Part shown: positions 11,460-58,323 of the stretch, piece by piece | Position numbering within the stretch: the first letter of the stretch is position 1 | Layout of the letters: each line of letters starts with the position of its first letter | Source: Candidatus Corynebacterium avicola | Lineage (GTDB): Bacteria > Actinomycetota > Actinomycetes > Mycobacteriales > Mycobacteriaceae | Reading direction: 5' to 3' | NCBI GenBank assembly: GCA_019114135.1 | Contig: DXGC01000073.1 | Span: 54,905 to 118,904, forward strand | Length of the DNA: 64,000 nucleotides | Notes under the pieces: generated by a model | Seen by the model: the letters and a program-made list of their open reading frames with translations, nothing else | Databases searched by the model: none | Told to the model about the DNA's origin: nothing | Translations under genes and position numbers: made by a program

Positions 11460-11471
11460 CAGTCCCAGCTG

Positions 11472-41131: not shown

Positions 41132-42094
41132 CTACACGGTGTCGACTATGAGTTGGTGGAGTTCGTGGATCGTCGGCGATTGCGCCCCGGCACGGGACAC
41201 CGCGACGGATGCGCTGGCCAGTGCGGTCTCCAATGCGCTGATCACCTGGTGCTCCGGGAGCTCGTCGGACGTCTTGTCGTCGAGGAGGAGCTCACCGAGC
41301 CCTCCCTGCGACAGCGCGAAGATCAGTCCGGACATGAAGACGTCGCCAGCACCGATGGTGTCTACGAGTTCCACCGGACGCGCCGGCAGATGATGGGTGC
41401 GCCCGTCCGCGATGGCGATGCACCCATGCTCCCCGGTGGTCAGGACGGTGAAGCGGGGATCGGAGTCCGCGATGCGTTGCAGGACCTCGGCAGGGGAGAG
41501 TCGTCGACTTCGCGTGATCCACGCCACATCCTCGTCGCTGAGCTTGACCACGTGGCAGGAGGTGGCCAGTTCGTAGACGGGGCCGCGCACGGAGGACGGC
41601 TCGCCCATGATGTCGGCGCGGATGATCGGATCGTGGGTGCGCAGGTCGCTGGGGCCGGCGCTGCTCATAGTCGCGCCCACCGCTGCTCCGCCCGGTTCAA
41701 GGACCGCTCCGATGGGGCCGGTGTGCACGATCGCGGCGCCACTGATGCCGGGCACCTTGATCTCCCAGTTTAGGTCGAAGGTGTAGGACGCCACACCCTG
41801 GGGTTCCAGGGGCACTGTGGCGGTGGAGGTGCGTCTCTTGTCGGCGAAACCCTGGGGAAGGTTGACGTTCGCCTTCTCCAGGTGCTGCTGGATCAATTTG
41901 CCGTACTCATCGGTACCCACACGAGACTGGAGTGTGGCGTGGAACCCGAGTCGTTACAGCCCGACTGAGACATTCAGGGGCGTTCCTCCGACCGGGGCTG
42001 CGTTTTCGCCATCGTTGGACGGGTCGTTCGCGATGACATCGACCAAGGCTTTGCCGAGGACTGCCACATGTGAAGAATTGTCGGCACTAACCAT
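41132..42094 (-). pseudogene. PfkB family carbohydrate kinase with premature in-frame stop
   Basis: From ATG 42094: VAVLGKALVD...VGGTPLNVSVGL*RLG (TAA at 41956-54), same frame continues to VDTIGAGDVF PfkB signature. Confidence 0.85.
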
Positions 42095-42288
42095 GGTGTC
42101 AGTGTACATGTGATTCAAATCACAGATTACGCTGCGCGCGGTGCTGGCACCGCGCTGAGTGTCGCTCAGTCTAGCGGGGGCGAAGGGTTAGTTGTTGCAT
42201 CAGGTGATGTAGTGGGGGAGGCAGGGGCGCAACGGTAGGTTGCTACGGGGGTGTGGTGCATAGCGAGGATCTAGAGTGCACCAAAATC

Positions 42289-42297
42289 TGATATCAT
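42289..42297 (+). promoter_or_regulatory. Extended -10 promoter (TGnTATCAT) for a probably leaderless TA operon
   Basis: tga-tatcat, with TATCAT at 42292-97 followed 7 nt later by ATG 42305. Confidence 0.6.
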
Positions 42298-42304
42298 GTG
42301 GTGC

Positions 42305-42634
42305 ATGAGTAAGTTGCTGTCGTCCCGTACCAGTCTGACCCTGACAGAGGAACTCCGTACCCGCATCGCGGAACTCCCGGAGGACTTCGTGCCGTCCACC
42401 AGCAGTGCGTCCGAGGTGCTTCGCCAGCTCATTGAACGCGGAGTTGTGGCTGCGGAGGAGCAAGCCGCCGAACGTGCGTATGCGGATATGGCGGCGGTAG
42501 AGAGCGTGTACCGAGAGGTACATCGTCAGCGTCGGACAGAACGCGCAACTGCTCGGGAGCGTGCACTTCACGCGGAGGAAGTCAGCGGCTCTGCGCAGGC
42601 CGCCCCATATGATGCTCCGGCTGGTGGACAGTGA
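42305..42634 (+). CDS. Putative antitoxin (ribbon-helix-helix-like N-terminus)
   Basis: RTSLTLTEELRTRI (strand-helix) and SASEVLRQLIERG; 4-bp GTGA overlap with the toxin gene. Confidence 0.65.
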   Translation: MSKLLSSRTSLTLTEELRTRIAELPEDFVPSTSSASEVLRQLIERGVVAAEEQAAERAYADMAAVESVYREVHRQRRTERATARERALHAEEVSGSAQAAPYDAPAGGQ

Positions 42635-43011
42635 GCGTTCCCTTACGGGGTGAAGTCCTTGAGGTCGATCTGGGGATAGTGGAACCAGACGGGACACCAC
42701 TTCCTCCGAAGCCATGGCTCATTGTCTCGCCGAACCCGCGCAACCGGGGACTGGGGACCTTCCTCGCGGTGCGTATCACCACGACCGGCAAACACGCGGA
42801 ACTACCCACCGTGGTCGCTCTGCCGGACGGTGAGGTGGTCCACGGATGGGTGCGCTGTGACAGCCTCGAGACCATTTACCCAGAGGATCTCACCGGGAGG
42901 CGTTGGGGAGCCCTGTCCCGGGAGGCGATGCGGGACGTCGGAGCGGGGCTGGCTGCGGCCCTCGGGCTTGATGAGAACACCTTAACGTGGAGTGTAGGAC
43001 GGAGCGAGTAA
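42631..43011 (+). CDS. mazF: PemK/MazF family endoribonuclease toxin
   Basis: RGEVLEVDL, KPWLIVS, RITTT, VRCDSLETI, ALSREAMRDVGAGLAAALGL. Confidence 0.85.
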   Translation: MSVPLRGEVLEVDLGIVEPDGTPLPPKPWLIVSPNPRNRGLGTFLAVRITTTGKHAELPTVVALPDGEVVHGWVRCDSLETIYPEDLTGRRWGALSREAMRDVGAGLAAALGLDENTLTWSVGRSE

Positions 43012-43024
43012 CTACGGTGTCAAC

Positions 43025-45157
43025 CTAGTCGTTCATGTGGAGGTAGTCGTTACGGAGTTCATTCAGCGTGTGTCCGGTTTCGGCGACAGACCACCATGCC
43101 CAGCCTGGCTCTGAGCTGGTTCCTGTAACTGCCCGCGCAGCTGGAGACGGATACGCGTATTCAGTGCCGTTGAAGGCGATTTTTCCTTCACCGGTGACCT
43201 TCGCGGTAACGCCTCTCCAACGGCTGGACTGTGAGGTTGGCCGGAGCCGGGTGCCTTCCGGGAGAATCTCGTTAGTAACCAGGTCGGCGATAGTGACAAC
43301 GGCGCGCCGGCGAGCCTCTGTGTCCGAAGTTCTGGTCTCGATGTCTCGGTTAGCCACTGTGAATCCTGCCGGCACCGGCCAGATGTCCAGAATCTCACCG
43401 ATGAGTTCCTCGGTGCGCTGTTCGATTGCAGTCTCGTCCCAGTCGCCGTCAGCCAGGTTCACTGCATCTCGGGTGAGCATTACGTCATCGTACTGACGGA
43501 AAAACTCGCGTTTGGTACTCCAGGCCCCGTTGTTGACCTTACTGTTCAGCTTCTGGGTGACGAGCGTGAGATTGCCGAGCTGGTGAAGGATGGAGTCTCG
43601 GTCCGCCTGCTGGTCTTCGGTGAGGTCGGCCATCCAGTTTTTCCGCCACTTCTGCGGCATGATGTGCTCCACAGTGCCTTTGCCACGAGAGATGGGGCCC
43701 ATCGCGAGCTGTCGGCCATCGGGATAGCCGCGTCGGTTGTCCTCGAGAGCCTCGAGGACCATACGGAGGCGTGCCCGGACGTATTTGTTGAAGGCCCTGG
43801 TGCCAGTGAGTTCGCTACGGATGTCGGCGTCACTGGGCCAGTAACCCACTTTGGTCGTGTTTGAGGTGAGGTACTCGGCGAGGGCATCTGGCAGTGAGGT
43901 GTTCGGCTGGTCCTCGAGGAAACGGATGACATCAAGGACAAACCGGTTGTTGCCGGCAGAGGTGGCTTTCACCAGCATGCGACGGACGAGCCATGTTTCG
44001 AGAAGCGCCAGAACCTTTTCTCGGTCAGCACGGGGGACGTCGGCCTGCTCGGGTTCGTTGAGCCAGATGATCAACGGCCTCGCGACCTCGGAATCTAGCA
44101 GGCGGATCCGGTAACTGAACAGTTCCTCCCGGTTCAACGGTCCATTGGGGCGGGCGGCTCCCCGGATGATCTCCTGGTAACGGTCCGCTGCGACCCTGAT
44201 CTGGGGCAGGAGATCAGCGATGTCCTTGTCGATGGTCGTGACGTAGTACTTGAACTGGCGGAACACTTCCCGGATCGGGAATTCTTCAAGGGTCCTGGTG
44301 GTGAGCCACTGCCACAGAAATAGTGAGGACCGAGGGTTCTTCAAGCGACCGGAGGTGACTTCCTCCTCCCACCACTCGGCCTCGAACTGGGACCAGTATT
44401 TCCGGTATGACTCCTCGGCGGCCGCCGGATTGGTGTTCAGGTTCTGGAAGACGAAGTTCTTGATGAGGTCGGCCGCAGATAGCGGAGTACCCCGGGCATT
44501 GAGCGTCTCGAAGATCGCCTGGGCATCCTCATCGGCATTGAGCCGGATAGTGGCGATTTCCAGTCGGTCCTGAACGGCGGCGACCAGCACCCGTCCGCGA
44601 GCGAATGCTTGTTCCTCGTCCTCACCGAGCCAGGCGTCAATGGCGTTGGCGAAGTAGCTGTGCCCCTGCTCCAGTCGAGAAGTGGCGCCTTGATCGTTTG
44701 AGTCCCTGTTGCCGTTCATCGCAGCGATGAATCCAGCTCGGTCCCGGTTTGTTGGCCAGAGCTTGAACTTGTCTTCGTCGGTTTGACGGTAGTCCTCGGA
44801 GTTCTCGATCAGCGACTTGATCTGTCCAGCGAGTTTGTCCCACCCACGTCTCGTCAGGCGATTATGGAGCGCGCTCAACAGGAGCTGGAGCGTCGTCAAA
44901 CGTTGTTGTCCGTCGATGACGTTCCAGGTCTGGATACTGCCCAGCGGAGTTGGGACGAGTTGGATGACAATGGCGCCGAGGAAGTGAGTCGCTGCCTGAT
45001 TATGGTGATCGATGACATCGATGAGACGGGTGATGTCTTCCCATAATGGAGCCCACTGCTTCTCCTCTGACCAGACGTAGGGGCGCTGGAATAGAGGCAC
45101 GACGAGGCGTGTCGTTGCATGGAAGATAGCTTTGGGGCTGTGGACGTCAGTATCCAT
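43025..45157 (-). CDS. gmrSD: GmrSD-type (DUF262 + DUF1524/HNH) modification-dependent nuclease with C-terminal RAMA-like domain
   Basis: PLFQRPYVW, IDGQQRLTTL, IFETLNARG; VEHIMPQ...LGNLTLV...LNS; tail AKVTGEGKIAFNGTEYAYPSPAARAVTG...GWAWW. Confidence 0.88.
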   Translation of the reverse strand: MDTDVHSPKAIFHATTRLVVPLFQRPYVWSEEKQWAPLWEDITRLIDVIDHHNQAATHFLGAIVIQLVPTPLGSIQTWNVIDGQQRLTTLQLLLSALHNRLTRRGWDKLAGQIKSLIENSEDYRQTDEDKFKLWPTNRDRAGFIAAMNGNRDSNDQGATSRLEQGHSYFANAIDAWLGEDEEQAFARGRVLVAAVQDRLEIATIRLNADEDAQAIFETLNARGTPLSAADLIKNFVFQNLNTNPAAAEESYRKYWSQFEAEWWEEEVTSGRLKNPRSSLFLWQWLTTRTLEEFPIREVFRQFKYYVTTIDKDIADLLPQIRVAADRYQEIIRGAARPNGPLNREELFSYRIRLLDSEVARPLIIWLNEPEQADVPRADREKVLALLETWLVRRMLVKATSAGNNRFVLDVIRFLEDQPNTSLPDALAEYLTSNTTKVGYWPSDADIRSELTGTRAFNKYVRARLRMVLEALEDNRRGYPDGRQLAMGPISRGKGTVEHIMPQKWRKNWMADLTEDQQADRDSILHQLGNLTLVTQKLNSKVNNGAWSTKREFFRQYDDVMLTRDAVNLADGDWDETAIEQRTEELIGEILDIWPVPAGFTVANRDIETRTSDTEARRRAVVTIADLVTNEILPEGTRLRPTSQSSRWRGVTAKVTGEGKIAFNGTEYAYPSPAARAVTGTSSEPGWAWWSVAETGHTLNELRNDYLHMND

Positions 45158-45172
45158 GGGGTTTGTCTCCAG

Positions 45173-46191
45173 TTACGAGGCGGATGTCGGTGTTTCTGTG
45201 AGTCCGGCAATGATCTGTTGGGTTTCAACGGCCATGGTCGTGACGCGGCCGATGAGGTTGATGAGGTAGCGGGAATTATCCTGCTCGGCACGCCAGTCGA
45301 TGGGGTCGTTGGTGATGTCGGACGACTTGTCCGTCTTTAGCTGCCACCGGTCGATGATCCATCCCAGCGCGGACCGGGAACCGAGCAAGTACTCCACGGC
45401 CTCCTCCGGGATGCCGGAGATCGTGACCTTTGGGTTGTAGATGATGATGGTGGTGTAGTCGGTGAATGCCTTCGTATTCTTCCACTTCATCTTTGTGATC
45501 TGCCAGGTCTTCGGGTCATTGGGATTGGCTGTTTTCTTCACATCGATGGTCAGCGGGTAAGGCTCGGCAGTCTCGAAGTTGATGTGGAGGTCCATCAGTT
45601 CCTTGCCGGCGGTGGCGAGCGCATCGAAGCGGTCTCGATGTCCACGGCTTCCTCCTGGTGAGGGCGCAGCGTATGAGGCTTCTTCGGGGCGAGATCGACC
45701 TGCAGGGTGTTCTTCGGCCAGGCAATGTCCCAACTGACCGGGGAATCCTCCAGGTCCTTCATGCTGATGCGCGTGACCGGGATCTGCTGGCCTTCCAATG
45801 CCGCTTCGGCGTTTTTCCTCCACTTGTCGGCGGTGGAGATGATTACGCGACGGGTGAACGGAGCTTTGCCGAACTCGGTGAAAGATGAGTCGATGTCGGA
45901 CTTCGCCAGGTGGTGCTCTGGGTCGTAGAACTTGCACTGGATCGCGGCGAACTCGTCCGGCGTGCCGAACTCGGGCCCCGTCTCCGCGACATGTGCGACG
46001 ATGTCGATGCCGTTGTCACCGTGGTTGTGGCGTCCAGGCCAGTCCGGCCACCGCCACACCTGGTCGTACTGTTCGTTGAGTGTGGGGTCCAGCTCGAACC
46101 ATCGGACCATGAGTTGTTCAAACTGGGTTCCTTGCTCCGAAGTGGAACTGGAGTCACGGAATGAGTTGATCACGTCATGCACGGAGGCCAT
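45173..46191 (-). pseudogene. Type ISP restriction-modification gene remnant (N-terminal nuclease joined out of frame to C-terminal domain)
   Basis: 5' part GIDI...AIQCKFY...LRPHQEEA; different frame then FDALATAGKELMDLHINFE...IIYN...YLLGSRSALGWIIDR...NDP; helicase and MTase absent. Confidence 0.85.
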
Positions 46192-46304
46192 GATGAAGAA
46201 GTTTACTTTGCATATGCTCAGTTTTGCGGTAGGTGGAGGTGGTTAGGGGGTAGTGGGGAGGTGAAGGCCCAAGTTGGCTGATCCTCACGCTAGAGTTATT
46301 CACC

Positions 46305-49300
46305 GTGACTAATAAGAATCAGGCACTGTCCTTTGCCATTGTCGACATCGAAACCACTGGCTTCTCCAATCGTGACCGGATTATTGAGGTAGCAGTGGTT
46401 CACGCTGACGCTGACGGCACGGTCACTGGCACCTGGAGCACCCTGGTCAACCCGGATCGCGACATACCGAACAGCAACGTCCATGCCATCTGCGCCTCAG
46501 ATGTTGTCGGTGCACCTTACTTCGCTGAGATTGCTGGCGAACTGGCAGCACAGCTAGAAGGACGGGTATTCGTGGCGCACAACGTGCCCTTCGACGCGCG
46601 TCTACTTACCGCTGAATTCGACAGGCTCGGGCTGGCGGGTACTCCGTTTGCTGGTGCCAGTTTGTGCACCCTCACCTTGACAGGTCGCCTGCTCCCAGCG
46701 TCCGGTCGGGGGCTTTCTGCCGCGTTGTCTGCGGCAGGAATCGTCAACACCCACGCCCATGCTGCACTGGGAGATGCCGAAGCTACAACCGAACTCCTAC
46801 GCCATTATCTGCTGCGGGCGCCGGAGGCCGTTGCTGACCTGCTTGCCGGGGTGCATCTGGTGCCGGCGTTCAGCGGGGACTTGGCGGAACTGGTCCCGCA
46901 GGCCGGGGGTACTCCTGTCGCCCTACACAATCGGACTGCGACGGCCAGAGCTCAAGATGGTCAATGGCTCGGTCAGCTCGCCACCGGAGTGCCGGTATTG
47001 GGGCAGCCACATGTGGATGCCTATCTCGATCTGCTGGCGACTGCAATGCTCGATCGTGAACTATCCGTTCACGAGGTCGGCGAGCTCACAGATTGCGCAG
47101 TCACACTCGGTATCGGACAGGAAGAGGCGATCGATCTCCATACCGAATTCGTCCGCCAGCTTGCTGTCTTGGCCTGGGCGGATGGAGTTGTCACTGAGGA
47201 AGAAGGCGAGGAACTGCATTCCGTGGCCCGCGCTCTCGGAGTCGAAGCTCATACTGTCGACGGTTTGATCAGTGCCCAGGTAGCTGACGGTACAGTCGGA
47301 TCAAGCACGGCAGGAGGTTCCTCGCTTCGTCTTTCGCCAGGGGATCGCGTCACCTTCACCGGAGCAACTGAAGTTCCGCGAACTGCGTGGGAAGCGCGAG
47401 CGTCTGAGGCCGGCCTCGACGTAGGGGGAGTGACGAAGAAGTCCGTTCTTCTCATTGCAGCTGACCCCGACTCCCTCAGTTCCAAGGCGAAGAAGGCACG
47501 AAAACTAGGGGTGCCAGTGGTCTCGGAATCTGGATTCGCGCGTCTGCTCGGAGAGCTGGAGAACTCCGGCAGTGGGGTCGTAGACCCAAGGATGATCGTC
47601 GCTGCCTCGCACCCGGTAGCCGAGAAGCCAGAGACTGAGGGCGGTCTCGAGGACTCGATGCAGTTCGACGGAAGTAGTTTCTACGAGGATGAGGGTGAAG
47701 TGTCTACACCGGTGGTTGAACTCGGGGATGACGGGATCGGCCTCGATGCAGGCACTATGGGAAGTGCATTCGACACCGCTGCAGGTATTCTCGGATTCAT
47801 TGCCCGCACCCACGGCGGCTTGCGTAAAGCGGTGGAACACCGTGGAATCTCGGCAGTCGACGGTGAATTGCCTCCTTACGTTGAAGCGTTGCTCTCCCAA
47901 GCTGGCGAAGAGTCCGGGAGCTTTCGGATGGCACTGTCACAGAGAAGGGGGACCATCACCGAGGTTCTGTCGAGTTTCTGGGACTCCTGTGATGAGCGCG
48001 AACAACGAATCCTGCGTGATCGGATCATCGCCCAGTCTCCTGCAACTCTTGACGAGATCGGGCAGGCCTTCGGGGTGACCAGGGAGCGGGTCCGCCAACT
48101 CCAGAAGAAACTGATCGCACGACTGCAGCCCGTAATCTCCAGTGGCCCTGTCGCCGATTTTTCAGCAGGTGTCCGAGCGCACGCATACCCAGTGGGAACC
48201 CTGGAACAGGTGACTTCAATTTTCCCGGAACTGGCTACAACTCTTTCCGGTTGGGAAGCACCTCTTTGGCAGATTCTCGATGCATTTGATGATGACTTCC
48301 GGATCGATGACGGCTGGGTTTGTTTCCCCGACTTGCCGACGGCGGCGCAGCGCACAGGCAACCTCCTGGCAGCATTGGTCAACGATGAAGGTGTCGCGGA
48401 ACTGGCGCGCGTTCTCGAGAAGTCGAGCCTCGAGGATCCGACATTGCTATCGCAGTGGCTTACAACCTGTGGTTATCTCGTGTCCGGCGACCACGTACTT
48501 ACCCGGGTCGGGTCCATTCCCGCCCGGGCGGCCTCACTTTTGTCAATTGCTGGCCGACCTATGTCCGTCCCGGAGATGTACGCCAGTATCGGTACCTCCG
48601 CCTCCGAGCGGTCTTTCCGCAACGGGCTATACTGCAGCGATGAACTCACGCGCGTGAGCGTCGACCGGTGGGCTCTGGAGCGATGGGGGATGGCTGAGTA
48701 CACGGGAATCGCCGATCTTATCGGCCAGCGCGTAGATGCTGCCACCGCGGATGGTGCAGAGGGTCTCCAGCTATCTGAACTAGTCACCGAACTCTCCGGA
48801 GTGTTCGGTGTCGCTGAAAACTCTGTCGCTGCCTATGCTGCGACTGGCGACTTCACATCAACGGGTGGCGTCGTCCGGCGCCGTTCCGAGCCAAAGGTCA
48901 ACAACGCCACTCCAGAAGAATCCAACGGCGTGTACATGCATGATGGTCGCTGGTGCATCCTGGCGACTGTGACGAAGGATCATCTTCGAGGTTCAGGTAC
49001 GTATGTCCCAAATGGGATGACAGCGATGCTCGGAATGCAATGGAATGAACCGCGGCTTTTGCCAAGCGAACATGGTGAACAGCGAATCATCTGGGGAAAC
49101 ATGGGCACCAGTTCGGTCGGCTCGATCCGTCGATTCCTCATTCCCCTGCAAGTTGTGGAAGGCGACCGTATCTGGATCGACCTGCATGACGGTGAATGGT
49201 TCTCCGTGACCACCGCGCCGACGTCCCGAGCTGAAGAACTGGACGGGATGGCTTGGCTCGCTGATCACGTCGGTGCTGTACCCGGCAAGGATGACGAGGA

Positions 49301-49427
49301 ATCATACCGCGTCGTTGCCGAGGCCCTCGGCCTCGCGCCGAATGCACCGCGCCGTAAGGTGCTCGCCCGGTTCCGCCACCGCCCCGATTCCGAGGCTGTG
49401 GAGCATCTCGAACGAATCTGGATGTAG
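46305..49427 (+). CDS. Multidomain protein: DEDDh 3'-5' exonuclease + TerB-like + BRCT + sigma70 region-4 HTH + winged-HTH-like region
   Basis: VDIETTG/HNVPFD/HAALGDA; LAWADGVVTEEE; VTFTG...VTKKSVLLIAAD...KAKKARKLGVPVVSE; TLDEIGQAFGVTRERVRQL; LLSIAGRPMSVPEM; TAGAGT -10 at 46291-96. Confidence 0.8.
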   Translation: MTNKNQALSFAIVDIETTGFSNRDRIIEVAVVHADADGTVTGTWSTLVNPDRDIPNSNVHAICASDVVGAPYFAEIAGELAAQLEGRVFVAHNVPFDARLLTAEFDRLGLAGTPFAGASLCTLTLTGRLLPASGRGLSAALSAAGIVNTHAHAALGDAEATTELLRHYLLRAPEAVADLLAGVHLVPAFSGDLAELVPQAGGTPVALHNRTATARAQDGQWLGQLATGVPVLGQPHVDAYLDLLATAMLDRELSVHEVGELTDCAVTLGIGQEEAIDLHTEFVRQLAVLAWADGVVTEEEGEELHSVARALGVEAHTVDGLISAQVADGTVGSSTAGGSSLRLSPGDRVTFTGATEVPRTAWEARASEAGLDVGGVTKKSVLLIAADPDSLSSKAKKARKLGVPVVSESGFARLLGELENSGSGVVDPRMIVAASHPVAEKPETEGGLEDSMQFDGSSFYEDEGEVSTPVVELGDDGIGLDAGTMGSAFDTAAGILGFIARTHGGLRKAVEHRGISAVDGELPPYVEALLSQAGEESGSFRMALSQRRGTITEVLSSFWDSCDEREQRILRDRIIAQSPATLDEIGQAFGVTRERVRQLQKKLIARLQPVISSGPVADFSAGVRAHAYPVGTLEQVTSIFPELATTLSGWEAPLWQILDAFDDDFRIDDGWVCFPDLPTAAQRTGNLLAALVNDEGVAELARVLEKSSLEDPTLLSQWLTTCGYLVSGDHVLTRVGSIPARAASLLSIAGRPMSVPEMYASIGTSASERSFRNGLYCSDELTRVSVDRWALERWGMAEYTGIADLIGQRVDAATADGAEGLQLSELVTELSGVFGVAENSVAAYAATGDFTSTGGVVRRRSEPKVNNATPEESNGVYMHDGRWCILATVTKDHLRGSGTYVPNGMTAMLGMQWNEPRLLPSEHGEQRIIWGNMGTSSVGSIRRFLIPLQVVEGDRIWIDLHDGEWFSVTTAPTSRAEELDGMAWLADHVGAVPGKDDEESYRVVAEALGLAPNAPRRKVLARFRHRPDSEAVEHLERIWM

Positions 49428-49453
49428 CGGGGGAGAAGTGCTGACCGATACGC

Positions 49454-50806
49454 TCAGCCGAGCGATGGCAGGCCATCCTTGTAGATGAGACCGTGAACTC
49501 CAGTCGTAATATCCACTACCTGGGAAAGCGCGAAGTCGGAGGCCGCCGAGAGGTAGGCGTACGCAACATGGCGTTCGATCCCCAAGTCGGTTTCCAGGAA
49601 GTCGAGGGCATTTACCACAGCGCGGCGCATGGCGATGTTCAGATCTCGACCTTCACCATCCACTTTGCCGTCTGGATCCGAGAGACCAATAGGAATCCAT
49701 GCGTCCTCGGTCTCCCCGAACGGGTAGTTGAACGCCACCGACGGGGTAGATGCATCGCCCTTCTTGCACACAGTCAGTCGGAATGTGGTTCGTAGAGACC
49801 CTTCCATGGCTGTCAGTGCTACTTCGCCGTCCCCCATCCCGTGGTGGGGGTCACCGGTGTAGAACAAGGCGCCTTCGGCGATCACCGGGAGATAAAAAGC
49901 TGAGCCTTCGCCGAGATGGCGAATGTCGATGTTTCCGCCGCCGAGCGTCGGAGGAATTGAGTTTCGACTGTCTGCCGTCAGGTCGTCCCCACTGGTGTTG
50001 GCAACGCCCATCATGCCCATGAAGGGACGTAGCGGGAACGTCAAATCCAACGAGCCCGACGACATGACTCCCTTGCCGTCTTCTGCACGAGTGAAAACGG
50101 AGACGTTGTCGTCAGTATCAATCGGAGGCATGACCTCTGAAAGCGACATTCCTTCGGGTGCACTCGCGTCAGGAAGCTTCCTTAGCGCACCCTTGCCGTG
50201 TCGACTCGACACCACACCGTAGGGGACACGTAAGGTAGTTTCGAGAGTCTCGATCTTCAGCACGTCACCGGGCTCAGCACCTTCTACAAAGATCGGGCCT
50301 GTAACGACGTGGGGACCGTCCTTGTCGAAGTCTCGAGAAGTTCTGTCGTACTCGGCCGCAATTTCTCTCACATCATCCAATACCTCGGACTTGGCAACGC
50401 CATGCTCTCCGAACCAGGCTTCAGGGTCTCGTCCCTGGTCCTCCATGATTCCCTCATGACTGACGGTGTCGACGGTGACTGTCTCGCCTGATTTCATCCT
50501 CAGAACCGGGGCACTGTCGGTCGAGGGCAGGTAGCCCCACAAGACCTTGTCTGGTTCAGAAGCCAGGTAGTGGTCTCCGGGGATGGCTCCGTTGTGGGGC
50601 TGGAGTATCCCGCCGGGCGAAGGAGTCGTAGACGAAGCTGCTGCAGCCCTGGCCCCTGTGTCGGTGTGACTACATCCAGCTACGGCGGTTCCAGCTCCCG
50701 CTGCGCTTAGAGCGGTGGCGATCTGGAGGAATCGCCGGCGTCCGAAATTGCTGGTCAGGAGGTTTGCTGTCTCGGAGGTTGTTGGCACTCTTCTACTGGT
50801 CGGCAT
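49454..50806 (-). CDS. Acetamidase/formamidase family protein with Tat lipoprotein signal
   Basis: FGRRRFL, lipobox VAGC; HVVTGPIFVEGAEPGD, GGNID, GDPHHGMGDGEV. Confidence 0.88.
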   Translation of the reverse strand: MPTSRRVPTTSETANLLTSNFGRRRFLQIATALSAAGAGTAVAGCSHTDTGARAAAASSTTPSPGGILQPHNGAIPGDHYLASEPDKVLWGYLPSTDSAPVLRMKSGETVTVDTVSHEGIMEDQGRDPEAWFGEHGVAKSEVLDDVREIAAEYDRTSRDFDKDGPHVVTGPIFVEGAEPGDVLKIETLETTLRVPYGVVSSRHGKGALRKLPDASAPEGMSLSEVMPPIDTDDNVSVFTRAEDGKGVMSSGSLDLTFPLRPFMGMMGVANTSGDDLTADSRNSIPPTLGGGNIDIRHLGEGSAFYLPVIAEGALFYTGDPHHGMGDGEVALTAMEGSLRTTFRLTVCKKGDASTPSVAFNYPFGETEDAWIPIGLSDPDGKVDGEGRDLNIAMRRAVVNALDFLETDLGIERHVAYAYLSAASDFALSQVVDITTGVHGLIYKDGLPSLG

Positions 50807-50841
50807 GATCCCGGACTGTAGTTATCGGGCATTGCTGTGCC

Positions 50842-50857
50842 GTTTCTCTCGCGTAAC
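50842..50857 (-). promoter_or_regulatory. GlnR-box-like site (GTTAC-n6-GAAAC) upstream of the amidase gene
   Basis: Minus strand GTTACgcgagaGAAAC just upstream of TACAGT (-10, 50815-20) and ATG 50806. Confidence 0.4.
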
Positions 50858-50994
50858 AGGAAACGTTCTGCGAAAGCCGAGCAAGTAGAGCACAAATCGT
50901 CCTAACCAATGCGAGCAATTCCTGCGTTACGCCAGTCGTCGCCGATCGCATAGGGCTGTCTAAATTGTGTTCTCGAACTCGCAGTGAACGGGTG

Positions 50995-52434
50995 CTAGTT
51001 TCCGCAGGTCGACGCAGCGTCCACCCCGTTGAAGCGGTCACCGATCCAGTCGAAGACCTCCGTCGCGTGGTTGATCTGTGGCACGGCATGTCCCAGACCA
51101 GTTCCCGTCAGTACCGCAGGTGTGTCGTCGGTGAGGAACTTCACCGTCGTCCCGGAAGCGCAGTAGTCCTCGGCGAGCTGCTTGGTCTGGCCGTAGGGGA
51201 TCGTGTCGTCGTTGACCGCGCCCAGGATGAACATGGGAACGTCCACCGGCCGATCACCGAGCCGGTAGTCCGGTCCCAACAGAATCCGGCGCAGATCGTC
51301 GTCGTCCTGGATGATCTCTCCGAAGGAACGCCCGTCGGCGGTCAGTCGGCGTGAATCAAACATGAACGACCCCACAGGATCCGTCACGTCGAAGTCGCTG
51401 AGGTCTGGGGCATCGTCGTCCATGGTGAAGGTGCACTCCGCGGCGGTCTCGTAGAGGAACGCCTTGCCCTCGTCGTTGAAGTACTTGTCGGCAAGCGGGG
51501 TGAGTTCCGGATTGCGCGCAAGCGCACCGTTGAGGGCGAACCCGAGGACGTTACCGCCCATCGAGCCGTCCACGGTGTCGGTGACGTCCTCCAGGTTCGC
51601 CGGAGGAGCCCCGGCGAACACGCCCTTCAAGTTCAGCTCGGGGGCGTAGGAAGACGCCAACTCAGCGGCACCCGCGACGGCCCCACCTCCCTGCGAGTAG
51701 CCGAAGAAGGCGACGGGGGAGTCAGCAGGAGCGTCGGCGAAGGCGAGGCCGGCGCGGGCGGCGTCCAGTACCGCGTGCCCCTCCTCGGTGTGGTTGACGT
51801 AGGTGTGCTGGCCCGGGGTGCCGAGGCCGATGTAGTCGGTGACGACCACCCGGTAACCCGCTGCTGAGGCCATCGCGTAGAACGGGTACTCGTAGTTGAG
51901 GTTGACGTTGTCGGAGGCATTGTCGGCGCTGAACAGCAGATGTCCTGAACGCGACGGGGCGCAGTCGTCGCCGGCGCCGCGGGTTCCGGGCCCGAAGACG
52001 ATGGTGGGCGTCGGTCCTTCGCCTGACCAGGGGCGGGCAGGTTCCATAACGAAGCCGCTGGTCGCGATTGGCGAGCCATCCTGGGCAGTGGACGTGTAGA
52101 GGATCTTGTCGGCACGGGCTGGGGCGTCCTCCCGGTCGAACCCCGCGAGCAGGTGCGGGGCGAACTGGTCGCGGATCAGGCTGCCTGGGGTGGAGGGGAT
52201 GGATGTCGGGGGAGTGTAGAAGGGGTCGGACGCCGGGTCCGCGATCGTCGGGTCTGCTTCAGCCAGACTCGGCGGGACGCCGGGAGCGGTGGCCGAAGAC
52301 GCGGAAATGGTGCCCGGACCGTCTGGGGAGGTGACGATGCCGGCCGCTGCGGTGGCCGCAGTGGCTCCAGCGATGAGGGAAATCGAGGCGAGTACGGAGA
52401 GTCCGGAAGCTGATATCCGGTGAGGAAACGTCAT
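50995..52434 (-). CDS. Secretory lipase (LIP family)
   Basis: Signal peptide; VVVTDYIGLG, GYSQGG, AVNDDTIPY, GLGHA. Confidence 0.88.
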   Translation of the reverse strand: MTFPHRISASGLSVLASISLIAGATAATAAAGIVTSPDGPGTISASSATAPGVPPSLAEADPTIADPASDPFYTPPTSIPSTPGSLIRDQFAPHLLAGFDREDAPARADKILYTSTAQDGSPIATSGFVMEPARPWSGEGPTPTIVFGPGTRGAGDDCAPSRSGHLLFSADNASDNVNLNYEYPFYAMASAAGYRVVVTDYIGLGTPGQHTYVNHTEEGHAVLDAARAGLAFADAPADSPVAFFGYSQGGGAVAGAAELASSYAPELNLKGVFAGAPPANLEDVTDTVDGSMGGNVLGFALNGALARNPELTPLADKYFNDEGKAFLYETAAECTFTMDDDAPDLSDFDVTDPVGSFMFDSRRLTADGRSFGEIIQDDDDLRRILLGPDYRLGDRPVDVPMFILGAVNDDTIPYGQTKQLAEDYCASGTTVKFLTDDTPAVLTGTGLGHAVPQINHATEVFDWIGDRFNGVDAASTCGN

Positions 52435-52642
52435 GACTAAATGGTAAAGGAAACAAAGTACTGTCTGCGGCGTGCGTCCGGGAGCAAAGCCGTCGGTAGT
52501 TCCGCCGGCTGGATGCCGACGACCTTGAGGCCGGGGGTGACGACATCCACCTGCCGATGGCGTCCTGATGCCTGGGTGGGTATAGGATCATCTGGACTCA
52601 TGTGAGTTCCCAATCCAAACCACGTCACTCGTAAAGGACACC

Positions 52643-52849
52643 ATGGAAATCATCGGCTCCATCATTGACCCCATTGCCGGCTTCGTGCAGGGCGGCTGGC
52701 GCGCCTTCCTCGACCTCATCGAGGACACCCCGGTCCGCGAGTTCTTCGGCCAGATCGGACGCTTCGTCGACGACATCGAGGGCTCGATCGGCATCAACCC
52801 CGATGACGAGGTTTCCGACTCCGTCCAGGGCAGCCTCGGTTCCAGCTAG
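52643..52849 (+). CDS. Small acidic amphipathic protein ending GSLGSS; PorH/ProtX-like candidate
   Basis: AAAGGA SD, strongly GC3-biased codons, downstream hairpin 52862-52893, no signal peptide. Confidence 0.6.
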   Translation: MEIIGSIIDPIAGFVQGGWRAFLDLIEDTPVREFFGQIGRFVDDIEGSIGINPDDEVSDSVQGSLGSS

Positions 52850-52962
52850 AAGTGTCTTCGCTTCCTCAGGCACGAATCCTCGTGCTTGGGGAATTGGTGC
52901 CGTTCAGACGACGACGAACTAGCGTTCCTCGCCTGTCGGTACCGGGGGCGGGGCACCAGCAG

Positions 52963-53880
52963 TCATTCCTGGGGTGCTGCAAGCCCGGTGACTCCTTCGG
53001 CCACGGAGCGGAGCCGACGAACTAATACCTTTTCACCCGGGTGCTCGGGCTGTCCTTTCCGTCGACTCAGGAAGATCGTTCGGTCCGGAGAGTTCGGAAC
53101 TGGGATGATTGCGACACCTGGCCGCAGGGGCATGGTTGACAAGGTCGGAGCGAATGCAACACCCACCCCCGCGGCGACCATGCTCTGAGCCTCTGCCCAG
53201 TCGTTCGCGGAGTAGGCGATCTGCGGAGAGAATCCGTACTCGCGCCCCGCCCAGTCCAGGACGGCCCCGATCTGATGGTCGTTGGATCTGGTAACCCATG
53301 TCGTCTGATCCTTCATGAGTTCCGACCAGAACACGTTGCTATCGGAAGACGGGACGAGGAGAACAGTTGGGTCGCGAAGTACCGGAACATAGTCGAACCC
53401 CTCGTCTCGCTGTGTGTTCCACGGGTAACTCCAGGTGAACGCAACGTCGACTTCGCGCTGTCGAAGCATTCGGCGCAACGGGACTAGGCGGGCGCTCCGC
53501 AACTGGAGCCGTACGCCAGTCTCCTCGGGGGAACTTAGCAGTGCGGGGCCTATTGATGTCGCCAGCGTTGGAAATACTCCACAGACCAGGGTTCCCAAAG
53601 AACCTTGCTTCAGTTGGTCGATACGACGACTGAAGGCGGTGAGACTGTCAAAGACCTCATCCGCGTGATTCTGGGCGATCAATCCTGCCTCGGTCGGGGT
53701 TATGCCGCGAGAGTGACGCTCGAAGAGTGCAATACCCAGAGATTTTTCCAGCGTGTTCATGTGCTGGGAGACGGCAGACACAGTGATCCCCTCCTTCTCT
53801 GCAGCTTTGGAAAAGGAGCCGGTTGTGATGACGGACCTTAGCAGTAGAAGGCGTTGGGCTGCGGTGTTGTCCATCTGCAC
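52963..53880 (-). CDS. LysR family transcriptional regulator
   Basis: GSFSKAAEKEGITVSAVSQHMNTLE, LFERHSRGITPTEAG; divergent from the 53993 operon. Confidence 0.92.
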   Translation of the reverse strand: MQMDNTAAQRLLLLRSVITTGSFSKAAEKEGITVSAVSQHMNTLEKSLGIALFERHSRGITPTEAGLIAQNHADEVFDSLTAFSRRIDQLKQGSLGTLVCGVFPTLATSIGPALLSSPEETGVRLQLRSARLVPLRRMLRQREVDVAFTWSYPWNTQRDEGFDYVPVLRDPTVLLVPSSDSNVFWSELMKDQTTWVTRSNDHQIGAVLDWAGREYGFSPQIAYSANDWAEAQSMVAAGVGVAFAPTLSTMPLRPGVAIIPVPNSPDRTIFLSRRKGQPEHPGEKVLVRRLRSVAEGVTGLAAPQE

Positions 53881-53992
53881 AGATTACAGCATTACTTAAA
53901 GCCCCGTCATTGGATTCGCTGTTCACTTAAGTGACGCTGGTCACTAAGGTCCTTTCGTATCGCGGACAATACGCGTACGAGAGGAATCCAGA

Positions 53993-55453
53993 ATGTCAAT
54001 GACCACTGTCGACCAATCGACTCTGGCGGCGAACAAGAAGAACCGACATCGCAAGAACATCTACATAGTTCTCGGGCCGGTGGCCGCCGTCATCGTCTAT
54101 CTTCTCCTTGGCACCTCAAGCCTGAGCCACGAAGGAAAATCAGTAGCTGCAATTGCGACATTGATGGGCGTCTGGTGGGTGTCAGAGGCACTTCCGCTTG
54201 GAGTGGCCTCCCTGGTGCCGATTATCGGGTTCCCACTGCTTGGGGCGTTGCCGGAGAGCGATGCATCCATGGCGTACGCGAACCCGTCGGTGTTCCTGTT
54301 CCTGGGAGGTTTCCTGCTGGCGCTGGGCGTGCAGACCAGTGGGTTGGACGAGCGAATCGCAATTACAACGATCTCGCTCATCGGTAGTTCACCTGCGCGG
54401 GTTGTCGCTGGATTCATGTTGGCCTCAGGTTTCGTCTCGATGTTTGTGTCCAATGGGGCGACGACCATGATGATGCTGCCTATCGCTCTGGCGGTCATCA
54501 GCCTTGTTCGAGAACAACTTCACAAAGACGGTCCGAAGTTCGCCGTCGGCCTCTTGATCGGTGTCGCTTACGCTGCGACCATCGGAGGCCTGGCCAGTCT
54601 TGTCGGTGCGCCAGTCAATCTCATCGCGGCCAACTACATCCAGGACAACACGGGAATCTCCGTGACATTCCTTGACTGGCTCAAGTTCGGTCTTCCTTTC
54701 GCAGTCGTCCTCATGATTGTTGCCTGGTGGCTCATCACTCAGGTCCTGTGGAAGGTTCGGTTCCAGGACCAGGAGGCGGTGAATCGACTCCTGCAGGAGC
54801 ACCGTCAGAAGTTGGGGCCATTACGTCAGGAGGAAAAGTGGTGCATGGTCGCTTTCGCTATCGCCAGCCTGGGGTGGATCGTACTGCCGCTGGTCTGGGA
54901 GGATGCCCCGTTGAGCGATTCGACAGTTGCTGTGATCGTGGGAGTGTCGATGTTCATCATGCCGGCTTCCGACGGCACCCGCCTTCTGAACTGGCAGAAG
55001 ACCCGTGACTTGCCGTGGGACGTCCTCCTGCTTTTCGGTGCAGGATTCAGTCTCTCGGCCGCAGTCTCTGGAACTGACCTCAATGACTGGATTGGGAACG
55101 CTTTCAGCGGCCTCGGCGGGCTGCCCATGCTGCTCATTCTGGCGATTATTGTCATCGCGCTGACCTTTCTCACGGAGTTCACCAGCTCAACCGCAGTGGC
55201 AGCAACGTTCATCCCGATCATCGGGAGTATCGCCACCGGGCTCGGTTTCGAAATCGCGCCACTTGTGGTGGCGGCCGGATACGCGTGTCTCCTTGCGTTT
55301 GCCCTGCCTGTGGGGACCCCACCGAATGCCGTGATCTTCGCAAGCGGCGAGGTCAAGGTCAAGGACCTCATGAAATCTGGTCTGCCAATGAATCTGGTCG
55401 GCATCGCCGTTCTCATGATCCTGTCCGTCACTCTGATTCCAATGGTGATGTAA
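53993..55453 (+). CDS. DASS/SLC13 sodium:dicarboxylate-type symporter
   Basis: WWVSEALP, SMFVSNGAT, LPWDVLLLFGAG, TEFTSSTA, LPVGTPPNA. Confidence 0.92.
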   Translation: MSMTTVDQSTLAANKKNRHRKNIYIVLGPVAAVIVYLLLGTSSLSHEGKSVAAIATLMGVWWVSEALPLGVASLVPIIGFPLLGALPESDASMAYANPSVFLFLGGFLLALGVQTSGLDERIAITTISLIGSSPARVVAGFMLASGFVSMFVSNGATTMMMLPIALAVISLVREQLHKDGPKFAVGLLIGVAYAATIGGLASLVGAPVNLIAANYIQDNTGISVTFLDWLKFGLPFAVVLMIVAWWLITQVLWKVRFQDQEAVNRLLQEHRQKLGPLRQEEKWCMVAFAIASLGWIVLPLVWEDAPLSDSTVAVIVGVSMFIMPASDGTRLLNWQKTRDLPWDVLLLFGAGFSLSAAVSGTDLNDWIGNAFSGLGGLPMLLILAIIVIALTFLTEFTSSTAVAATFIPIIGSIATGLGFEIAPLVVAAGYACLLAFALPVGTPPNAVIFASGEVKVKDLMKSGLPMNLVGIAVLMILSVTLIPMVM

Positions 55454-55455
55454 CT

Positions 55456-56358
55456 ATGTCTCATCCGCTTCCAACTGACCATGCCCGTGACCTTGTCGCC
55501 GGAGCCATCGATCTCCATGTTCACGCAGGACCCGACATCGTCCCCCGCCGATGCACTGCCCAGGAGATCATTCGATGTTTTACCGAGCAGGGACTCGCGG
55601 GGTTTGTGGACAAGAACCACTTTTCTCCGACCACGCTGAAGAACGTGGAGACCAGAGACGGTGGTGCTCAGCACATCAGTTCAGTCGTCCTCAACAACTT
55701 TGTCGGAGGTCTGAATCCCCTCGCGGTTGATATTGCGGCCAGAGCCGGAGCTGGCGTCGTTTGGCTTCCCACCGTCGATGTCGAGATGACTCCGGGCACT
55801 GTCCCAAAGCCGCTCAGCGGATCACCTTCCTCCTGGAGCGCGGTGCGCGACGAAATTATGGAGCGTGGTCTCAACCGGCATGTGGATCCGATCCTCGATG
55901 GTGGCGCACCTTCCCGCGAACTGTTGGCTGTCCTCGAGGTCGTCCGCGACTACGGCCTCACGGTGGCTACCGGCCACCTGCGTTTTCCTGAAACACTCGC
56001 CGCTGTTCGTGCGGCGAAGAAACTGGGAATCGACAACATCATCGTCACTCACCCGGAGTTTCCCTCCCAGCACTTCTCTGACGACCAGAAGCTTGTCCTG
56101 GTGGAGTCCGGCGGAACCCTGGAGTATTGCTACACCACCGCGGCAAGCGGCAAAACCTCCTGGAAACAGTGGTTACACGGTATCGCCACAGTCTCCCCGG
56201 AGCACGTTGTGATCAGCAGCGACGCCGGGCAGCCTGCGAACCCACCAGTCGAGGATTGCATCGCTCTGGCGGCGGACCGGTTGCTGCAGGAAGGGTTCGC
56301 CGACTCTGACATCCGCACAATGACTGTGACGGCGTCTCGCCGACTCATCAATACTTAG
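55456..56358 (+). CDS. Amidohydrolase-fold metalloprotein (DUF6282-like)
   Basis: AIDLHVHAGPD, TGHL, THPEF, SSDAGQ metal-ligand pattern. Confidence 0.75.
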   Translation: MSHPLPTDHARDLVAGAIDLHVHAGPDIVPRRCTAQEIIRCFTEQGLAGFVDKNHFSPTTLKNVETRDGGAQHISSVVLNNFVGGLNPLAVDIAARAGAGVVWLPTVDVEMTPGTVPKPLSGSPSSWSAVRDEIMERGLNRHVDPILDGGAPSRELLAVLEVVRDYGLTVATGHLRFPETLAAVRAAKKLGIDNIIVTHPEFPSQHFSDDQKLVLVESGGTLEYCYTTAASGKTSWKQWLHGIATVSPEHVVISSDAGQPANPPVEDCIALAADRLLQEGFADSDIRTMTVTASRRLINT

Positions 56359-56393
56359 TAAATTCACCCCAATTGAGAATCTGGAGAAAAAAA

Positions 56394-57485: not shown

Positions 57486-57790
57486 ACGATGATGCTCGCC
57501 CGATGACTTGGACGGTACCGTTGCTGGACTGTCGCCTGGGTCAGGTAGAACCCTCGATCTGAGCCGTTGACCTGCACGCCCCCGGCAGACTTGTCGACCG
57601 GAGGGCAAACCGAGGGGGATGAAGCCCACACGTTGGTGAGCGACACGATCTTCTTCTGTTAGTACATGGACGATCTGCCTGTGGCCATCCCTGTTGTGCA
57701 ACGTCGATTCGACGGAACCTGCTGTGACTAGCGACTACCATGTTAAGTCTTTGGACGCTGATATTCGGACATCACCGTATTCTCAGGGAC

Positions 57791-58323
57791 ATGGCTCCCA
57801 CAGACTCTGACACCGCATTGATTTCTGCCATCCGATCCGGTGGGCAGAGCGGTGCGGATCGTGGGGCTCTCGACGCCGCGAGTGCCCACGGGGTGGCCAT
57901 CGTGGGCTTGTGTCCGGGCGGGGGTGGGCAGAGGATGTCCCGGAGCCGCCGTGAGTCCTGACCGACTATCCAGAGTTGGTGGAGACACCCTCGGCGGATC
58001 CTGCGCAGCGGACCGAGTGGAATGTGCGCGACAGCGACGTCACCTTGGACATTGCTCTACCTTCGGCCGACGGAGTCGCCGTTTCACCGGGGACAGCACT
58101 CACACTGGCGCTCGCCGAAAAGTACTCGAAGCCATCCATGGTCATTCGTGATGGCGGCCCGGACGAAAGCGCAAAAGTCCTCACCTGGTTGGAAGATCAG
58201 GGGAGAGAGATGACCGTGAACGGCGCCGGCCCTTGGGAGAGCGAGAGTCACGGAGTCTACCGACTGGCCTTCCACGTCATTTTTGGAACTCCTCTCAACA
58301 CACCTGTCCGAAACGTGGGATGA
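57791..58323 (+). pseudogene. Disrupted 'MoCo-carrier'/circularly permuted YpsA SLOG-family gene
   Basis: SGGQSGADRGALDAA...GLCP, frameshift in G-run 57920-24, TGA 57952-54, then YPELVETPS...QRTEWNVRDSD...GTALT...NGAGP. Confidence 0.75.

Follow-up and report, generated by a model that had tools for sequence, protein, structure and literature searches.

A probable defence-island fusion of a PDC-S48-type exonuclease with an MzaA/PglW-like DNA-binding module in Corynebacterium

Background

What would a protein with a DnaQ-like exonuclease at one end and a sigma-factor-like helix-turn-helix (HTH) domain in its other half do in a restriction island? The question is raised by a gene at 46305-49427 (+ strand, GTG start, stop codon included) in a 64,000-nucleotide stretch of Candidatus Corynebacterium avicola (assembly GCA_019114135.1, contig DXGC01000073.1, positions 54,905 to 118,904 of the forward strand). 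That whole stretch is called the window here, and its first letter is position 1 of the coordinates given for it. The initial annotation, made from the letters and their open reading frames (ORFs), read the gene as a single frame of 1040 amino acids (aa) and proposed that the fusion of domains it encodes might be an uncharacterised anti-phage protein. The frame stands as described.

The answer favoured here is that the gene encodes a defence-island fusion of PDC-S48, a family catalogued in PADLOC, with a DNA-binding module of the MzaA/PglW kind, a reading we hold with good confidence. The best reading of the sequence is a single chain that joins two units, each of them mobile independently of the other: unit 1 (aa 1-421) and unit 2 (aa ~480-1040). 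Each unit is independently tied to nuclease-based defence loci, and the fusion of the two is lineage-specific. We give about an even chance to the further proposal of a DNA-targeted 3'-5' exonuclease that serves a defence island; its anti-phage function, its substrate and its cooperation with a neighbouring type ISP restriction-modification enzyme are all inferred. Taken as a prediction, the fusion is a plausible new variant of bacterial immunity.

The N-terminal unit matches PDC-S48

The PDC-S48 hidden Markov model (HMM) of PADLOC-DB, PDLC05027, aligns to aa 9-418 of the window protein at E = 2.7e-131, covering HMM positions 5-408 of 411. The agreement is with the model and not with the gene architecture, as PDC-S48 is a single gene of ~410 aa and the HMM spans the first 40% of the 1040-aa window protein. 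PDC entries in PADLOC are predicted phage defence candidates and are unvalidated. The word "uncharacterised" in the initial annotation therefore needs dividing: the N-terminal half was already catalogued as PDC-S48, while the fusion itself was not found described in the literature.

Three domains make up this unit. The first is a DEDDh (epsilon-like) 3'-5' exonuclease (aa 9-178, 46329-46838, +), recognised by Pfam RNase_T over aa 12-165 (E = 3e-18). The motifs that the initial annotation had picked out are intact, VDIETTG at aa 13-19, HNVPFD at aa 92-97 and HAALGD at aa 152-157, so that exo I, II and III with their D, E, D, H and D are all present, as in the DEDDh (DnaQ-like) superfamily. All 51 homologs compared keep D14, E16, D/E97, H152 and D157, position 97 being either D or E. 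Foldseek aligns the domain to Pol III epsilon with a template modelling (TM) score of 0.84, and also to the Cas-associated DnaQ domain of S. thermophilus and the exonuclease-DinG of S. aureus.

The second domain is a helical bundle (aa 218-330, 46956-47294, +) that contains the motif AWADGVVTEEE at aa 290-300. The family profile for aa 218-330, for which 16 homologs were aligned, matches PDB entry 2ou3, "tellurite resistance protein COG3793", at E = 5e-4 in an alignment that passes through the repeated ADG-x-x-x-x-E motif, and AlphaFold2 (AF2) places helices across aa 220-325. The Pfam TerB model (PF05099) is weak here (aa 278-317, E = 0.043, 14.6 bits against a gathering score of 24.4), the same family profile also matches Tic110 (E = 2.8e-4), and one homolog matches DUF533 (E = 0.009). 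The earlier label "TerB-like" has the bundle and the 2ou3 match behind it and falls under the Pfam gathering score; it is reasonable but not proven.

The third, a BRCT domain (aa 345-421, 47337-47567, +), had also been named in the initial annotation, and it is there. Pfam BRCT (PF00533) scores aa 350-413 at E = 4e-4 and 20.9 bits, 0.4 bit short of the 21.3-bit cut-off, which the homologs P0003 and L026 clear. The BRCT of LigA (PDB 9vse) is matched at E = 1.2e-4, the AF2 beta-alpha secondary structure fits the BRCT fold, and the pocket residues T352, G353 and K394 are invariant among the 51 homologs, in a segment that is the best conserved of the whole protein. After the BRCT comes the acidic linker of the initial annotation (aa 422-480, 47568-47744, +), disordered in the model, with 14 D/E against 2 K/R over aa 422-476 and an AF2 confidence (predicted local distance difference test, pLDDT) below 50 across aa 422-475. 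Distant Corynebacterium homologs have a helix-hairpin-helix (HhH) segment resembling the C-terminal domain of the RNA polymerase alpha subunit (alpha-CTD) in place of this linker. Fusions of the C. amycolatum type retain that segment, and in the lineage of the window protein the acidic linker has taken its place.

An exonuclease followed by a BRCT domain is, as the initial annotation had noted, the layout of actinobacterial DnaQ, shared by the mycobacterial proteins. A housekeeping DnaQ paralogue of this type, acting at the replication fork through the sliding clamp, would account for that layout, for the best NCBIfam match being NF004719 ("DEDDh family exonuclease", E = 4.9e-51), and for the ~290-aa exonuclease and BRCT versions without the TerB insert that occur in Pseudonocardiales. 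It would not account for a score of 173.6 bits where the NF004719 cut-off is 389, for a TerB-like insert of ~170 aa and an extension of 620 aa, or for the lack of any Q[YL]ALF clamp-binding motif in a regular-expression search. Its synteny is not conserved and its spread within Corynebacterium appears patchy, and a housekeeping role of this kind seems to us very unlikely.

The public gene call for this locus (P0001) is 1010 aa long and begins at an internal Met (46395), dropping exonuclease motif I with D14 and E16. We take the GTG at 46305 as the start because homologs begin upstream of the first exonuclease motif. With motif I omitted, automated annotation would make the gene look catalytically incomplete. 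Homologs number 163, the full-length ones being confined to Corynebacterium. Against the closest of these (locus L098; 86% identity, dS 0.73), dN/dS is 0.107 overall and 0.05-0.18 per domain, a figure that averages both lineages since their split and in which a recent relaxation of selection could go undetected. Read in this way, the ratios indicate purifying selection on the whole chain and on every domain.

The C-terminal unit combines sigma region 4 with winged helices and a B3-like barrel

AF2 run with family alignments gives a pLDDT of 92.4 for aa 500-1040, and the full-length model, at pLDDT 84, is usable. After the linker and a short helical segment comes a sigma-70 region 4-like HTH (aa 551-612, 47955-48140, +). 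The initial annotation had identified this domain, and Pfam Sigma70_r4 supports it at aa 563-607 (E = 2e-9), with TLDEIGQAFGVTRERVRQL lying at aa 581-599. Region 4 of SigA in the PDB is matched at E = 5e-9, and Foldseek alignments to SigA region 4 reach 46% identity. Among the 51 homologs, the T-R-E-R-x-R-Q recognition helix never varies at R595, R597 and Q598 and hardly at T592, R593 and E594. Pfam and NCBIfam searches found neither sigma region 2 (PF04542) nor region 3. With region 4 standing alone, identity as a sigma factor is ruled out.

The remainder of the unit had been glimpsed in the initial annotation as one further HTH-like segment, LLSIAGRPMSVPEM (aa ~745-758). That segment is real and belongs to the third domain in a tandem array of four winged helices (aa 614-860, 48144-48884, +; AF2 pLDDT 92); what had been overlooked is two more winged helices of this array, a beta-barrel and a helical tail. 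By Foldseek the four domains resemble the tandem winged-helix arrays of UFL1/DDRGK1 and SelB. They form the most divergent ordered segment of the protein, with ~29% identity between distant fusions, a divergence that fits a role in determining specificity. The B3-like barrel follows (aa 862-975, 48888-49229, +), for which Foldseek returns the plant B3 domains of VAL1, VRN1, TEM1, FUS3 and ARF at a probability of 0.96-1.0, a target TM of ~0.5 and E-values of 0.02-0.07. Its motif DHLRGSG (aa 892-898) is near-invariant, and the R-G-S-G within it is invariant family-wide, free-standing relatives included. The chain ends in a helical tail in the AF2 model (aa 980-1040, 49242-49424, +), which free-standing relatives also keep, R1026 (R527 of the fragment) included.

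A clear sigma region 4, which conserves the residues by which sigma-70 contacts the -35 element, invites a quite different explanation, namely that the protein is a regulator or sensor working through RNA polymerase, either by binding the promoters of island genes or by mimicking promoter-recognition surfaces to detect phage proteins that hijack them. Relatives carry RNA_pol_A_CTD, and PglW has the same section of alpha-CTD and winged-helix HTH, which has been read as a sensory hub (PMC12839542). The position of the gene, divergent from type ISP and GmrSD genes, would also suit a regulator. The catalytic half is harder to explain in these terms, since its exonuclease residues are invariant and a pure regulator would not need them, and the pairing with type ISP described below is also seen with unit 1 on its own, a unit that lacks any HTH. 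The alpha-CTD segment, moreover, has been lost from the window protein. The SigA histidine contacted by actinobacterial WhiB proteins is a Gln in the window protein. We judge a regulator or sensor of this description unlikely.

A narrower form of the sensing idea would have region 4, together with the alpha-CTD-like domain in relatives, act as a decoy of the promoter-recognition surfaces of RNA polymerase. Phage hijackers would bind it and so release the attached or neighbouring nuclease, which would be the DEDDh exonuclease here and MzaBCDE, PbeA, HNH or helicase-restriction endonuclease proteins elsewhere. It is a speculative proposal, and we think it quite improbable; were it true, the ~1,560 clusters of the family described below would amount to a "transcription-takeover sensor" common to actinobacterial immunity.

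Both units occur as separate genes in defence-associated loci

The initial annotation had noted that finding the two halves as separate genes in relatives would tell against its proposal, and literally this is what is found: both halves are widely free-standing, and C. marambiense has a split gene. Separate halves argue for the modular fusion of two defence-associated units and not against a role in defence. In a scan of one genome per species, unit 1 occurs as a free-standing gene of 390-480 aa in many Actinomycetota and also in Planctomycetota, Acidobacteriota, Longimicrobiales, Caldilineaceae and gammaproteobacterial metagenome-assembled genomes (MAGs); this is the norm outside Corynebacterium. 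Blastococcus and an Acidimicrobiia MAG each have a DEAD-box helicase of 1250 aa with unit 1 as its C-terminus (L053 7487-11239 and L054 7487-11248), and this helicase adjoins the SngB ATPase of Shango. Among the 97 immediate neighbours of 52 free-standing unit-1 genes, PADLOC recognises MADS, type ISP, SngB, AriA, Hhe, PD-T4-4 and several PDC families.

Searched alone, unit 2 brings up proteins of ~640-740 aa that NCBI names "sigma factor-like helix-turn-helix DNA-binding protein", most of which carry an extra alpha-CTD-like domain (RNA_pol_A_CTD) before region 4. In other Actinobacteria, unit 2 is a protein of its own, of ~700 aa. When 1.84 billion representatives were searched by profile, the family came to 1,562 clusters (50% identity) at E<=1e-30. 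Some members have N-terminal HNH/His-Me nucleases, and one, of 2134 aa, has an AAA_11/AAA_12 helicase and an MTES_1575 restriction-endonuclease domain. A metagenome scan with the C-terminal profile (pattern GVTRER[VIA]RQ) returned ordinary sigma factors only.

Several free-standing unit-2 genes keep company with nuclease-based systems. In Actinoplanes unit 2 comes directly after MzaB, MzaC, MzaD and MzaE (PADLOC E = 1e-110, 5e-179, 3e-19 and 9e-89), and its neighbours in Rathayibacter are MzaB-E, Dcm, Vsr and a GmrSD_C gene. The genes that precede it in Kribbella have MzaB-, MzaD- and MzaC-type domains, identified through Pfam and not PADLOC, so that bona fide MzaB-E stand beside unit 2 in two loci and the third rests on Pfam domains (the three loci are L015, L096 and L097). 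Elsewhere, unit 2 overlaps the start of PbeA within a Dnd locus in Nakamurella, and on Microbacterium chocolatum plasmids of 14-17.5 kb it lies among UvrD-type, DUF4011 and DEAD helicase genes. On these plasmids a gene annotated as a "3'-5' exonuclease" lies directly upstream of unit 2. As a link to the fusion it was rejected (BLASTP against the N-terminal half of the window protein, E = 1.8), and it counts as one more nuclease or helicase neighbour of unit 2.

A separate observation concerns the MZA loci themselves. At L096 356-12208 and L015 9133-20851, actinobacterial MZA loci with Dcm and MzaB-E have, at the end of the operon or beside it, a protein with alpha-CTD, sigma region 4, winged-helix and B3-like domains and not a canonical MzaA. 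The PADLOC MzaA model recognises such a protein only at region 4, so these loci may be scored as incomplete MZA.

Plasmid carriage raises the possibility of a mobile-element establishment or anti-defence function, for instance that of an exonuclease protecting or processing incoming DNA. Unit 1 is found on a conjugative Arthrobacter plasmid among small hypothetical genes (L180, NZ_CP015812.1, and L182, CP017423.1, are the plasmid loci for both halves), and unit 2 on the small Microbacterium plasmids just mentioned. Defence genes, too, are commonly plasmid-borne. In Corynebacterium the fusions lie on the chromosome and, in the loci examined, adjoin no integrase, tRNA or plasmid genes; a scan of viral contigs with the whole protein found nothing, and phage records yielded a bare exonuclease domain only. 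A mobile-element function seems highly improbable.

Fusion loci and the type ISP cassette

Full-length fusions of 900-1270 aa are found in C. variabile, C. glyciniphilum, C. jeikeium, C. amycolatum, C. auriscanis, C. hansenii, C. pacaense, C. dentalis, C. falsenii, C. antarcticum and others, in an apparently patchy spread over ~17 species loci of the genus (again with one genome per species). Variants of 590-650 aa have an HhH-like stub and no C-terminal module. One Corynebacterium MAG has two tandem fusion paralogues of 857 and 1067 aa (L037 8813-14672), and in the split gene of C. marambiense (L050 9986-13332) the N-terminal ORF is 628 aa and the C-terminal ORF 466 aa. A conserved housekeeping context, another sign that the initial annotation had set against its proposal, is not what surrounds these genes: the housekeeping flanks (SelO; rpsT/lepA; dnaG; polA/rpsA) vary in nearly every species examined.

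Defence genes lie near about half of the fusions. In 10 of 18 distinct Corynebacterium loci the fusion lies within ~4 kb of a type ISP, GmrSD, type I restriction-modification, CRISPR-Cas I-E or Wadjet gene. The C. hansenii fusion has a divergent GmrSD_N gene; C. amycolatum has type I and MmeI-like restriction genes nearby; C. jeikeium has CRISPR-Cas I-E at 3.7 kb; C. pacaense has GmrSD and DUF6308 nearby; and C. auriscanis, C. dentalis and Corynebacterium sp. AOP40 have an intact divergent type ISP gene, together with Wadjet, HipA and HigB in AOP40. The 65 nearest neighbours of 17 fusion loci give PADLOC matches to type ISP, type I restriction, MADS, HEC-05, NsnA and JetD, where, as in the other PADLOC neighbour tallies, families and not genes are counted and no random-gene background was computed. 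Four PADLOC "PbeA" matches among the Corynebacterium neighbours, first read as GmrSD_N-type genes, were not counted, since PbeA is of a PLD-helicase type and the matches probably come from helicase domains.

Type ISP is the neighbour that recurs. It is the immediate upstream gene in seven distinct loci, which are the window (as a remnant), L098, C. auriscanis, AOP40, C. dentalis, Gulosibacter and Microbacterium. It is divergent in the five Corynebacterium loci, the window included, and co-directional, with a gap of 89-130 bp, before free-standing unit 1 in Gulosibacter and Microbacterium. The type ISP pairing is not incidental. It is kept with free-standing unit 1 and in either orientation, and therefore belongs to the exonuclease unit.

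The fullest cassette is that of the closest relative, L098, which comprises a GmrSD gene with a RAMA domain, an intact type ISP gene of 1669 aa, the exonuclease fusion and, 7 bp downstream, DUF6308. Between the window and L098 the exonuclease genes are 86% identical and the GmrSD genes (43025-45157 and L098 1579-3750) 56%, which suggests allele replacement of GmrSD within the cassette. Cassette shuffling of this sort is as expected in defence islands. DUF6308 adjoins the exonuclease gene in three unrelated loci (L098 11997-12893, L010 9051-9737 and L024 ~11294-11854) and may be a further component of the cassette; it recurs beside homologs in C. pacaense and Phycicoccus. The DUF6308 gene has no PADLOC match and is not present in the window.

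An internal deletion has destroyed the window's copy of the type ISP gene, next to an exonuclease gene that is intact. The remnant (45173-46191, -; Pfam Mrr_cat_2 and Type_ISP_C) aligns with positions 2-179 and 1486-1637 of the 1646 in the PADLOC model REase_MTase_IIG. Compared by tblastn with the intact type ISP protein of L008, it retains aa 1-184 (87.5% identical) and aa 1511-1656 (71%), so that the Mrr-like nuclease N-terminus is fused, with a frame offset of 2 nt, to the end of the specificity domain. The deletion spans about 1,325 codons and takes out ATPase, coupler and methyltransferase together with most of the specificity domain, of which the final ~146 residues are left. What remains is not the complete single chain of Mrr nuclease, helicase-like ATPase, coupler, methyltransferase and specificity domain that makes a type ISP enzyme. 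Between remnant and exonuclease gene lies a divergent intergenic region of 113 bp (46192-46304), in the same layout as in L006, L008, L022 and L098.

The recurrent pairing raises the question whether the exonuclease protein is an obligate accessory of type ISP, processing its nicks or degrading its products, which in the window would be an orphan without a function of its own since the ISP deletion. Seven distinct loci in three genera and two orientations, and the intact type ISP gene of the closest relative, are what such an accessory would show. Most fusion loci, including those of C. amycolatum, C. jeikeium, C. hansenii and C. pacaense, have no type ISP gene, however, and neither do 50 of the 52 free-standing unit-1 loci. 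The window gene is also intact with all its motifs kept, at a dN/dS of 0.11 that cannot exclude recent relaxation. We regard strict dependence on type ISP as rather unlikely.

Farther from the fusion gene, the window contains a type IV restriction enzyme of the GmrSD family that carries a RAMA domain at its C-terminus (43025-45157, -; Pfam, PADLOC) and a toxin-antitoxin pair (42296-43011, +) made up of a MazF/PemK toxin (42631-43011; Pfam PemK_toxin, E = 4.9e-13) and an overlapping upstream ORF of 112 aa, the presumed antitoxin, which has no Pfam match. All three statements of the initial annotation about context, divergence from a type ISP remnant and proximity to GmrSD and to a toxin-antitoxin pair, are borne out by Pfam, PADLOC and tblastn. 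The G+C content falls from ~0.66 to ~0.59 across 42000-58000 (16 kb), where the defence genes (the MazF pair, GmrSD, the ISP remnant and the exonuclease gene) are mixed with metabolic genes (formamidase, lipase, LysR, a symporter, DUF6282 and an isopropylmalate-type dehydrogenase). The window as a whole yielded no tRNA, and the ORFs scanned at 40-57.5 kb yielded no integrase. Pfam and PADLOC found no MzaB-E among the neighbours in the window, which likewise has no SngB or SngC. A second and sharper dip in G+C, to 0.571 with a strong positive GC skew of 0.21, is seen at 24001-26000.

A proposed mechanism

The reading preferred here, a DNA-targeted exonuclease of a defence island, can be put as a sequence of steps. 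Unit 2 would bind the target DNA. The BRCT domain would engage a DNA end or nick, or else a partner protein, and its pocket could hold a phosphorylated DNA end. The exonuclease would then resect from 3' ends or nicks, including those made by a translocating type ISP nuclease or by the GmrSD enzyme next door, and through resection, damage to invading DNA that could otherwise be repaired would become irreversible degradation. Both GmrSD and type ISP enzymes generate 3' ends or nicks. The protein has no endonuclease domain and therefore needs such lesions to be made by something else, which gives a simple reason for the pairing.

Several observations weigh against this reading or narrow it. That same lack of an endonuclease domain makes the protein dependent on ends made elsewhere, and the substrate of the exonuclease could be DNA or RNA. 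Type ISP is a neighbour at only 2 of the 52 free-standing unit-1 genes, one Corynebacterium unit-2 locus (L011) has no defence neighbour, and the remaining 8 of the 18 fusion loci (L017-L021, L025, L037 and L050) were not resolved locus by locus. A sequence-profile search of the PDB with the barrel gave no match, the B3 assignment being one of fold similarity only. A promoter scan of the upstream region found no sigma-70-type consensus and nothing over the shuffled background; the gene was seen in metagenome runs only (dust, fermentation), and there is no usable RNA-seq for the organism. A literature search found no mention of PDC-S48 and no experiment on it or on the window protein. The anti-phage role proposed by the initial annotation accordingly stands as a prediction, with the defence neighbours, the PDC-S48 match, the relatives adjacent to MzaBCDE and purifying selection in its favour. 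The literature searches also gave no account of the fusion, its type ISP cassette or the architecture of its C-terminal module, none of them having been aimed at the type ISP pairing.

Comparison with known systems

The closest known counterpart of unit 1 is PDC-S48, which shares exonuclease, TerB-like and BRCT domains with aa 9-418 of the window protein and whose module lies in defence-rich neighbourhoods. PDC-S48 is a single-gene candidate of ~410 aa, to which the window protein adds a DNA-binding half of 620 aa. If the window protein is a defence protein, it would offer the first lead on how this catalogued family works. For phage work and genetic manipulation in Corynebacterium it is one more candidate barrier. 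The mycobacterial DnaQ (Rv3711c / Ms6275; NF004719 PRK06063) likewise has a DEDDh exonuclease followed by a BRCT. It is ~330 aa long and binds the beta-clamp by a C-terminal Q[YL]ALF, whereas the window protein is without the motif and variable in its location. The C-terminal Q[Y/L]ALF clamp-binding motif is described for actinobacterial DnaQ in 10.1101/2023.10.24.563508.

The DEDDh fold is common to Cas2-DnaQ, exonuclease-DinG and TONDO proteins, and the PADLOC model of a CRISPR-associated "DEDDh" matches the window protein at E = 6e-29. The ISG20-like TONDO exonucleases pair a DEDDh domain with variable auxiliary domains, are shorter than 500 aa and act on RNA phages. The auxiliary domains of the window protein differ from those of TONDOs (compared by description and not by sequence), Cas2-DnaQ and exonuclease-DinG. 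Shango (SngABC) includes a TerB-domain component. Unit 1 is fused to a DEAD helicase beside SngB in Blastococcus and the Acidimicrobiia MAG, and the window is without SngB or SngC.

Type ISP enzymes of the LlaGI/LlaBIII type, regarded as self-contained single polypeptides, are the recurrent immediate neighbour, in seven distinct loci. Literature searches, which were not aimed at this question, found no exonuclease partner of type ISP. The recurrent pairing suggests that, in Actinobacteria, enzymes supposed to be self-contained may be served by a dedicated exonuclease helper.

For unit 2 the comparison is with PglW from type 2 BREX and with MzaA. The free-standing relative P0133 matches PglW HMM positions 803-976 (E = 1.4e-8), and the window protein does not reach the PglW model. 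PglW has NERD nuclease, kinase and iSTAND domains, and has neither an exonuclease nor a B3-like barrel. Its alpha-CTD-like domain and winged-helix HTH modules are described as a nucleic-acid-binding and sensing unit joined to effectors (PMC12839542, 2026). MzaA belongs to mzaABCDE, a validated defence system in which it is described as a sigma factor. Like unit 2 it has a sigma-70 region 4 HTH, and relatives of unit 2 adjoin bona fide MzaB-E. The window protein scores 34.7 bits against the MzaA model NF041931, over region 4 only, where the cut-off is 800, and matches PADLOC PDLC02203 at E = 7.9e-5 over aa 551-608 only. Canonical MzaA has region 4 at its C-terminus; in the window protein it stands close to the N-terminal end of the module, with winged helices and the B3-like barrel after it. 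The link of unit 2 to MZA, Pbe and PglW is readable from public data, and the family is large and barely annotated. What it reveals is an unannotated and very large DNA-binding family, with alpha-CTD, sigma region 4, four winged helices and B3-like barrel, that is a partner of MZA, Pbe, HNH and helicase-nuclease effectors and offers a way into the part that the "sigma-like" component plays in such systems.

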